Shown here piece by piece: positions 15,727 through 16,063 of a stretch of 64,000 nucleotides of DNA. This DNA comes from Escherichia coli. GTDB taxonomy: Bacteria; Pseudomonadota; Gammaproteobacteria; Enterobacterales; Enterobacteriaceae. The DNA lies in the NCBI RefSeq assembly GCF_030013595.1, contig NZ_CP122768.1. One strand, written 5' to 3'. The position numbers were made by a program, and so were the translations under genes. The notes below the pieces were generated by a model that saw only the letters and a program-made list of their open reading frames with translations, was not told the DNA's origin and did no database searches. Position 1 is the stretch's first letter; each line of letters begins with the position of its first letter.

Positions 15727-16063
15727 GGAAGTACCTATAATTGATACGTGGCTAAAAAAACGTCAGGGAGCCATAGAGCGTAGCGCATGATGACACCGAC
15801 ATTTATGATTAACATCATGCACTGCAAATTTTTTTTGCATGATGGAAGAAATATCTTGAGTCTATGCCATTTTGCGTAATTTTCAGCCAATGGCATAATG
15901 TATATGAATTTGACGACTCAATGAATATGTACTACTTAGGCCTTCAGGCTGCTAAAGGATACCTGATAGTGGGTATGGAAGACAAAATGTTTTGAACGTT
16001 GTCCCGCTGAGTTGTGAATTTGCACAAATTTTTGAATCTTTATATGTGAAGTTGAGGTGAAGC

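Follow-up and report, generated by a model that had tools for sequence, protein, structure and literature searches.

The window analysed here, a 64-kb stretch of Escherichia coli DNA, carries the acetate kinase gene ackA (15726..14524, minus strand), followed by pta, and the gene yfbV (16064..16519, plus strand), followed by yfbU and hxpA. Acetate overflow and the pool of acetyl-phosphate are set by ackA-pta, and insulation of the Ter macrodomain requires yfbV. In a reading of the sequence alone, an inverted repeat had been placed between divergently oriented ackA and yfbV genes, and this gene context is correct. The two genes share an intergenic control region of 337 bp (15727-16063), for which at least four ackA 5' ends, overlapping antisense transcription and control by FNR have been reported.

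The conservation of this control region is unusually high in both sequence and length. Within the species, 5424 of the 5426 complete E. coli genomes carry it with an identity of 99% or more. We retrieved the yfbV locus from the genomes of 80 species, 77 of which yielded an ackA-yfbV intergenic region. These regions have a mean identity to E. coli of 77%, and nearly all are 331-339 bp long (75 of 77 species), the exceptions being two Kluyvera species with an insertion of about 127 bp. More distant relatives (Pantoea, Erwinia, Biostraticola and Enterobacillus) were reached via homologues of YfbV. Published positions in MG1655 (NC_000913.2) were converted to window positions using the relation MG1655 coordinate = 2,427,218 - window coordinate, which was derived from ackA at 2,411,492 and checked against the sequences quoted with published start sites.

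Transcription start sites and regulator sites of the control region

Using the published data, we assigned the known transcription start sites to the window. The distal ackA promoter P1 on the minus strand has its -35 hexamer TTGTCT at 15985..15980 and its -10 hexamer TATCCT at 15961..15956, and gives a leader of 223 nt from a start at 2,411,269, which is window position 15949 (PMC3415461 supplement). The ackA-pta operon start of Conway, as quoted in PMC7373196, lies one base away at 2,411,270 (15948, minus strand). Our weight matrix predicts a start near 15949 as well, and both hexamers are conserved. A further ackA start with a 98-nt leader has been mapped at 2,411,394, which is 15824 on the minus strand (PMC3415461). 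The proximal ackA promoter (15768..15782, minus strand) has the -10 hexamer TACGCT at 15782..15777 and a start at 15768, 42 nt before the ATG (PMC2760140). The FNR position of -74.5 in Table 1 of Myers suggests one more ackA start about 8 nt before the ATG.

In the opposite direction, the main yfbV promoter (15910..15946, plus strand) has a conserved -35 hexamer TTGACG at 15910-15915 and starts at 2,411,272, which is window position 15946, with 69 reads and a leader of 118 nt (PMC3415461 supplement). Another yfbV start lies within ackA, at 2,411,815 or 15403 on the plus strand (PMC3415461), and PMC7373196 lists further starts in the yfbV direction at 15748, 15763, 15514 and 15442. Both strands of the region are transcribed, and double-stranded RNA clusters span 2,411,203-2,411,785.

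FNR has a located site and documented control in this region. The FNR box ATGATTAACATCAT is found at 15805..15818, and its motif had earlier been derived from ChIP-chip data (PMC1802558). An FNR ChIP peak at 2,411,404, window position 15814, falls on the box, with the site position given as 2,411,410; in the fnr mutant, ackA and pta drop about ten-fold and yfbV two-fold (PMC3688515). Judging from these coordinates, the centre of the box would lie at about -41.5 to -43.5 of the proximal ackA start, which is a class-II distance. Across all genera examined, the distant ones included, the box hardly changes, with variation in two columns. In addition, we read from the sequence a direct repeat TTCACctcaacTTCAC with the pattern TTCAC-N6-TTCAC at 16046..16061 on the minus strand, a cre-tag-like repeat that matches the consensus assigned to CreB.

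Position and extent of the inverted repeat

The sequence-only reading had described an 8-bp inverted repeat with a 17-bp spacer at 15854-15886. Such a repeat exists, but ten bases further to the right: the arms ATGCCATT (15864-15871) and AATGGCAT (15889-15896) enclose a spacer of 17 bp, and the span 15854-15886, which reads TCTTGAGTCT...TTTTCAG, contains the left arm only. We found that the symmetry extends to nine perfect pairs, with the left arm TATGCCATT at 15863-15871, the spacer TTGCGTAATTTTCAGCC at 15872-15888 and the right arm AATGGCATA at 15889-15897. The hexamer CATAAT, which was said to follow the repeat immediately, is located at 15894-15899, overlapping the last three bases of the 8-bp right arm.

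Within the distal ackA transcript the repeat covers positions +53 to +87, inside the 223-nt leader. Relative to the main yfbV start it is found at -49 to -83 (centre at about -66), and its centre is at about -112 of the proximal ackA start, which adjoins the FNR box. A comparison with mapped regulator sites of ackA had been proposed, and it gave no coincidence: the repeat is distinct from the two regulator sites located in this region, the FNR box (15805-15818) and the cre-tag-like repeat (16046-16061). The FNR box, 46 bp away, is an inverted repeat of the FNR/CRP type (TTGAT-N4-ATCAA) in the same control region. Its arms of 5 bp and spacer of 4 bp put one helical turn between the half-site centres, it is supported by ChIP and it is nearly invariant, whereas the repeat studied here has a spacer of 17 bp and another sequence, and is lost outside the core Enterobacteriaceae.

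Inverted repeats of this size are frequent in the window. With spacers of 0-30 bp, the 64 kb contain 46 perfect 8-bp repeats compared with 27.9 ± 5.0 in dinucleotide shuffles, and 24 perfect 9-bp repeats compared with 7.1 ± 2.5. In a shuffled window, 0.51 occurrences of the 8-bp pattern with up to three mismatches are expected, and 0.11 of the core TGCCAT-N15-23-ATGGCA. No second copy of the repeat occurs elsewhere in the 64-kb window, and none of the open-access main texts found quotes its sequence. Taken alone, without its conservation, the repeat is not beyond chance in 64 kb. It is raised above chance because the surrounding block is conserved across many genera.

Conservation of a 41-bp block around the repeat

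The repeat is contained in a block of 41 bp (15859-15899) that is conserved across about 57 distinct sequences of core Enterobacteriaceae, from Escherichia, Salmonella, Citrobacter, Klebsiella, Enterobacter, Kosakonia, Kluyvera and others. The mean column conservation is 0.86 in the block and 0.78 in the intergenic region. About 20 positions are invariant or nearly so, among them A15859, T15861, T15863, A15864, T15870-G15874, A15878, T15881-C15884, G15886, C15888, T15891-A15895, A15897 and T15899. Given a conservation above the regional average and these (nearly) invariant positions, the alignment argues that the sequence of the block, though not its symmetry, is likely to be functional.

The left arm has a mean conservation of 0.89 (per column 0.92, 0.96, 0.72, 0.91, 0.76, 0.85, 0.91, 1.0 and 0.99) and the right arm of 0.91 (from the outer end inwards 0.97, 0.64, 1.0, 1.0, 0.95, 1.0, 0.95, 0.81 and 0.91), with a nearly invariant TGGCA at 15891-15895. 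The spacer is conserved about as well as the arms, with a mean of 0.84, seven positions at 0.99 or above and the invariant columns T15872, T15873, G15874 and T15882. There are no indels between the hexamers of the block in the alignment.

Conservation in related species, whose absence the sequence-only reading had named as counting against its interpretation, was indeed found: the sequence of the repeat is kept in related genera. In Cedecea and Siccibacter only the left part of the block is present, where a TAAACT hexamer persists at the left edge and the rest has diverged. Pantoea, Erwinia, Biostraticola and Enterobacillus have lost the block, while the order of the genes, the box for FNR, the distal promoter of ackA and the ribosome-binding region of yfbV are retained.

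Pairing between the two arms

The conservation of the arms does not extend to their symmetry. Only 32 of the 78 rows of the alignment keep the full set of nine pairs, and 25 rows have six pairs or fewer. Changes in the arms are one-sided, giving A-G in 24 rows, T-G in 17 and A-A in 16. Among the 57 distinct sequences, 88.1% of the cells pair when read in the yfbV sense, compared with 87.5 ± 0.3% with shuffled partners, and only four cells are changed on both sides. In the ackA sense 83.7% of the cells pair, again with no excess of covariation. Moreover, mirror positions are unequally conserved: position 15864 has 0.96 and its partner 15896 has 0.64, and position 15865 has 0.72 and its partner 15895 has 1.0. 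The RNAalifold consensus of 34 ackA leaders omits the hairpin. Because pairing is close to that of the shuffles, changes are one-sided and the consensus fold lacks the hairpin, the alignment indicates that evolution keeps the element as a sequence and not as a symmetry or a pairing.

The geometry of the repeat had been likened to the operator of a dimeric regulator. The inverted half-sites are real, with nine of nine pairs in E. coli, but their symmetry is not maintained in the other species. The centres of the arms are 26 bp apart (25 bp for the 8-bp arms), or about 2.4-2.5 helical turns. For a simple helix-turn-helix dimer, half-site centres are usually about 10-11 or 21 bp apart, so that the distance found here is unusual, and the spacer (0.84) is nearly as conserved as the arms, which does not fit such an operator either. 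An outer repeat TTGAGTC/GACTCAA (15856-15862 and 15915-15921) was also considered and discarded, as it is not conserved; 32-66 of the 78 rows pair at each of its positions.

Promoter-like motifs on both strands of the block

On the ackA strand, the left edge of the block carries the -10-like hexamer TAGACT (15859..15864, minus strand), with a predicted start at about 15852, and the -35-like hexamer CTGAAA (TTTCAG on the plus strand, 15881..15886) at a distance of 16 bp. The -10-like hexamer occurs as TAGACT, TAAAAT, TAGAAT or TAAACT, so that variation is confined to positions 3 and 5, while T1, A2, A4 and T6 stay constant; as far as an alignment can tell, this pattern is the signature of a -10 element. 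In 59 of 76 species the hexamer is among the three best-ranked candidates of its strand. The combination CTGAAA-16-TAGACT is also the in-silico pick for the ackA promoter by Ishihama's group, who found that the RpoD holoenzyme binds the ackA/yfbV spacer in genomic SELEX (PMC3946193).

On the yfbV strand, a -35-like TTTGCG or TTGCGT (15871..15877, plus strand), in which an invariant TTG (15872-15874) precedes variable bases, is followed by the extended -10-like motif TGgCATAAT (15891..15899, plus strand). The predicted start is at about 15906, and the nearby A15907 is invariant. The hexamer varies between CATAAT, CAGAAT and CATACT, and the motif keeps TG.CA.A.T at a constant spacing of 16-17 bp. 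In the E. coli intergenic region TGgCATAAT is the top candidate on the plus strand, with a score of 9.12.

The weight-matrix scores of the two motifs, 9.1 on the plus and 8.3 on the minus strand, compare with a best score of 10.2 ± 1.8 in shuffled intergenic sequences, and both CTGAAA-16-TAGACT and TTTGCG-17-TGgCATAAT are below the threshold of 9 of 12 for promoters. Starts at about 15852 (minus strand) or 15906 (plus strand) are absent from the start-site lists of PMC3415461 and PMC2760140 and from those quoted in PMC7373196. A sigma-70 ChIP-seq peak at 2,411,364, window position 15854, is found 9 bp outside the left arm and rises from 1268 to 5613 under anaerobic conditions (PMC3688515). This peak could be a merger of the promoters at 15949 and 15768, the resolution being too coarse to separate neighbours.

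Judged by their identity, the conserved positions appear to fit recognition motifs and not symmetry, namely TAnAnT on the ackA strand, the invariant TTG at 15872-15874 and TG.CA.A.T on the yfbV strand. A -10 model, in which position -12 should prefer T, leaves the invariant G15893 and C15894 unaccounted for, which hints at a further specific contact. The arrangement resembles overlapping divergent sigma-70 promoters with an extended -10 element (TGnTATAAT), with which it shares hexamer-like elements on both strands, a spacing of 16-17 bp and conservation at the key positions (TTG; A2 and T6; TG at -15/-14). It differs from such promoters in the invariant non-consensus C at -12 and in scores that are not above the shuffled background.

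A Fis-like core between the arms

The Fis consensus is GNNYAWWWWWTRNNC. The 15-bp core GCGTAATTTTCAGCC at 15874..15888 matches it at 10 of the 11 specified positions; the only mismatch is position 11 (+3), where an invariant C takes the place of T. At least 9 of the 11 positions match in 76 of the 78 rows, and the four most variable columns of the core fall on an N of the consensus (15875, 15876 and 15887) or on a W (15879). The core is the only site with at least ten matches in the intergenic region, the background of such matches in the window being 0.66 per kb. The same bases were predicted as a Fis site by a weight matrix in previous work, as ATTTTGCGTAATTTTCAGCCAATG at 15869-15892 (Mendoza-Vargas et al., PMC2760140 supplement file 6).

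Fis sites upstream of sigma-70 promoters, such as those of rrnB P1 and nir, have several features in common with the block: a core of 15 bp whose outermost positions (-7 and +7) are G and C, the Y-A and R at ±4 and ±3, and a centre rich in A and T. A further common feature is the placement 60-115 bp upstream of regulated starts and beside an FNR-activated promoter. The nir promoter is likewise FNR-dependent and is modulated by Fis and IHF. The block differs from these sites in the C at +3, in being predicted by weight matrix only and in a conservation that reaches beyond a Fis footprint.

Discussion

Overall, the comparison of sequences supports a conserved regulatory element in the ackA-yfbV region. 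As a tentative explanation, to which we give a probability of about 0.4, we propose that the inverted repeat is part of a conserved composite protein-docking DNA element, in which a Fis-like A/T core is flanked by mirror-image -10-like motifs. The 41-bp block is then probably an ordinary, so far unannotated cis-element whose palindromic look is incidental; in this best reading it is probably neither an RNA hairpin nor a symmetric operator. The position of the block, its conservation pattern, the lack of covariation and the transcriptional context are observed, whereas the bound protein and the effect of its binding are inferred.

According to this proposal, the block would work on the level of DNA, as a module of the control region common to ackA and yfbV at which proteins dock, with an A/T-rich core of the Fis type (G15874-C15888) between two outward-facing, mirror-image motifs of the RNA polymerase type. 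Because both strands begin with AATGGCATA when read outward, the palindrome can be explained by two such motifs. On the ackA strand the outward sequence runs into TAGACT, for which CTGAAA, 16 bp upstream, would be the partner; TGgCATAAT is what it forms on the yfbV strand, and here TTG[CGT], located 16-17 bp upstream, would be the partner. In E. coli, the perfect symmetry over 9 bp may thus be a by-product of two similar motifs facing apart. Held by the block at about -66 of the yfbV start, about -112 of the proximal ackA start and +53 to +87 of the distal transcript, RNA polymerase, a nucleoid protein or both could tune the balance of the divergent promoters.

An operator for a symmetric dimeric or tetrameric regulator, which would contact both arms through widely spaced DNA-binding domains and control ackA, yfbV or both, is unlikely in our estimation, although several observations speak for it. 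The 9-bp arms match perfectly not only in E. coli but also in Salmonella and in many Citrobacter and Enterobacter, the conservation of each arm is high, and the invariant TGGCA of the right arm is not fully accounted for by the promoter or the Fis model. In Cedecea there is one apparent compensatory change (CGCC/GGCG), the site between divergent genes fits, and long-spacer palindromic operators do exist, as in the case of bioO, the operator of BirA, and of the operators of NikR. Against such an operator stand the pairing and covariation, which do not exceed those of the shuffles, the unequal conservation of mirror positions, the conserved spacer and the nine pairs kept in only 32 of 78 rows. 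The arm centres are about 2.5 turns apart, the window holds no second copy, and the genomic SELEX and ChIP literature searched names the yfbV/ackA spacer for FNR, RpoD and RpoN only. The closest parallel is bioO, found in E. coli between the divergent bioA and bioBFCD promoters, which has the same place between divergent genes, an imperfect palindrome of about 40 bp with arms of the 9-bp class and a spacer of 16-17 bp, and arms that overlap the hexamers of promoters facing across the palindrome. That operator has a demonstrated binder and mapped starts, whereas any binder of the block studied here and its two starts are putative, its arms are unrelated in sequence and its symmetry is lost across genera. 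By this analogy, the block might be a bioO-like operator with a long spacer, restricted to the core Enterobacteriaceae and lying across two face-to-face minor promoters, which would couple ackA with the expression of YfbV; we regard this as very unlikely. If true, it would couple acetate kinase, and with it overflow metabolism and acetyl-phosphate, to the protein that insulates the Ter macrodomain.

Conservation beyond the core also bears on whether Fis, or another nucleoid protein, might be the only ligand of the block, with the arms as conserved flanks or unrelated neighbouring signals. The match to the consensus, its conservation and the weight-matrix prediction are in line with such an architectural site, as are the T-rich and A-rich flanks beside G15874 and C15888 and a place upstream of an FNR-dependent promoter that recalls the FNR promoters modulated by Fis and IHF, such as nir. 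However, conserved bases of both arms (GGCA on the right, TA..GCCA on the left) lie beyond a Fis footprint of 21-27 bp, and at +3 there is an invariant C in place of the T of the consensus. We consider a site for Fis alone slightly less probable still than a symmetric operator. Quite improbable, in turn, is a palindrome without a function of its own, which arose by chance in a region conserved for other reasons. About seven such 9-bp repeats are expected per window, the symmetry decays freely across genera and the whole intergenic region is conserved at 78%; the block, on the other hand, is above this regional average and holds its own set of invariant or nearly invariant positions. Least probable of all, and hardly to be expected, is an RNA hairpin with a 9-bp stem and a 17-nt loop in the 223-nt ackA leader, in long yfbV 5' transcripts or in both, acting on stability, processing or translation. 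Both strands are transcribed across the repeat (ackA P1 at 15949; starts in the yfbV direction at 15403-15763), it lies inside the mapped double-stranded RNA clusters, and single sequences fold with -12.2 kcal/mol in the ackA sense (z = -3.2) and -12.0 kcal/mol in the yfbV sense (z = -1.95). Covariation is nevertheless absent in either sense, and the hairpin has no place in the consensus fold of the leaders. It also has no Rfam family, the one match being a sub-threshold chance match to a snoRNA, and no terminator-like U tract; its loop is conserved like its stem. Furthermore, it would be outside the transcripts from the -42 and -98 ackA starts and from the main yfbV start.

If the composite block that we propose binds Fis or RNA polymerase, it would add an input from the growth phase to a fermentation promoter controlled by FNR. 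Binding of a new factor would instead link metabolism with the organisation of the chromosome.

Several other identities of the repeat were considered and set aside. There is no intrinsic terminator in 15700-16090, the repeat having a loop of 17 nt and no T run behind it, and Rfam has no match for the block as a known RNA family. The insulator sites tidL and tidR, which have been linked to YfbV, have the consensus GYTGACGTCAGC, which is unrelated to the repeat. Small ORFs could begin at the ATGs of the arms (15864..15995 on the plus strand, 15896..15735 on the minus strand), but these start codons are not conserved (T15865 72%, T15896 64%) and no Shine-Dalgarno sequence was seen. Likenesses to sites of PurR (ACGCAAA), Cra (GCTGAA), CRP, IHF, ArcA, DnaA, CytR and MarA, compared by eye, are half-sites at best or are not conserved. 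A sigma-54 promoter (TGGCAC-N5-TTGCW, with GG and GC 10 bp apart) does not fit, as TGGCAT on either strand has no GC at that distance; in the near match TGGCTGAAAATTACGCA on the minus strand the spacing is one base too long. A peak for RpoN from genomic SELEX is located in the ackA/yfbV intergenic spacer at window position 15786.

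Length of the intergenic region and transcription starts

Among 77 species from many genera (loci L001-L085, our handles for the region in other species' genomes), 75 have an ackA-yfbV intergenic region (15727-16063 in the window) that measures 331-339 bp. For Pantoea, Erwinia and Cedecea the length is 334-337 bp. This constancy suggests spacing constraints among many signals. Two Kluyvera loci (L064 and L070) depart from this uniform length, having about 127 extra bp inserted at the equivalent of position ~15922 in the window; the insert probably represents a repetitive or mobile element of small size.

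The main yfbV start at 15946 (+) faces the distal ackA start at 15949 (-), with a 4-nt overlap at 15946-15949 (starts from PMC3415461). Since these starts are convergent and overlapping, the yfbV promoter and the distal ackA promoter each lie within the transcribed leader of the other gene. The literature disagrees on the 5' end of ackA, which has been placed from 15733 to 15949. Leaders of 223 nt and 98 nt (PMC3415461) as well as of 42 nt (PMC2760140) were described, while the FNR site at -74.5 given by Myers et al. (PMC3688515) implies an ackA start just ~8 nt before the ATG.

FNR box and overlapping inverted repeat

The palindromic FNR box (15805-15818) is nearly invariant, Pantoea, Biostraticola and Enterobacillus included. 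The -42 ackA start is located at a class-II distance from it, and in the yfbV direction a candidate -10 element, CATGAT (15838-15843), lies ~40 bp away; as a palindrome, the box might serve both directions. In an fnr mutant, yfbV was two-fold down (PMC3688515).

A second inverted repeat, CATCATGCA / TGCATGATG (15813-15821 / 15836-15844), consists of 9-bp arms and a 14-nt spacer, and its arm 15813-15821 overlaps the FNR box. This repeat is chosen by RNAalifold as a hairpin in the consensus of 34 ackA leaders. In other genera it is longer (CATCATGCC...GGCATGATG), showing a few compensatory pairs and an A-rich, weakly conserved loop.

Further motifs

A clade-specific palindrome, GACGAN-N9-N'TCGTC, is found in Enterobacter, Lelliottia, Kosakonia and Leclercia (e.g. 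loci L032, L036, L050, L052 and L031) at the equivalent of 15912-15934, where it overlaps the yfbV -35 element TTGACG; in E. coli, Citrobacter and Salmonella it is degenerate. Its innermost pair covaries, being GC in five cases, AU in four, UG in four and UA in one.

A sigma-54-like near match, TGGCTGAAAATTACGCA, is present on the minus strand (15889..15873), its GG-to-GC spacing being one base too long. Genomic SELEX with the RpoN holoenzyme has been reported to give a peak within the ackA-yfbV spacer, at 2,411,432 of MG1655 (NC_000913.2), which corresponds to position 15786. Moreover, a cre-tag-like direct repeat, TTCACctcaacTTCAC, occurs on the minus (ackA) strand at 16046-16061. The yfbV start codon is just 3-18 bp away from it, and its distance to the ackA ATG exceeds 300 bp.
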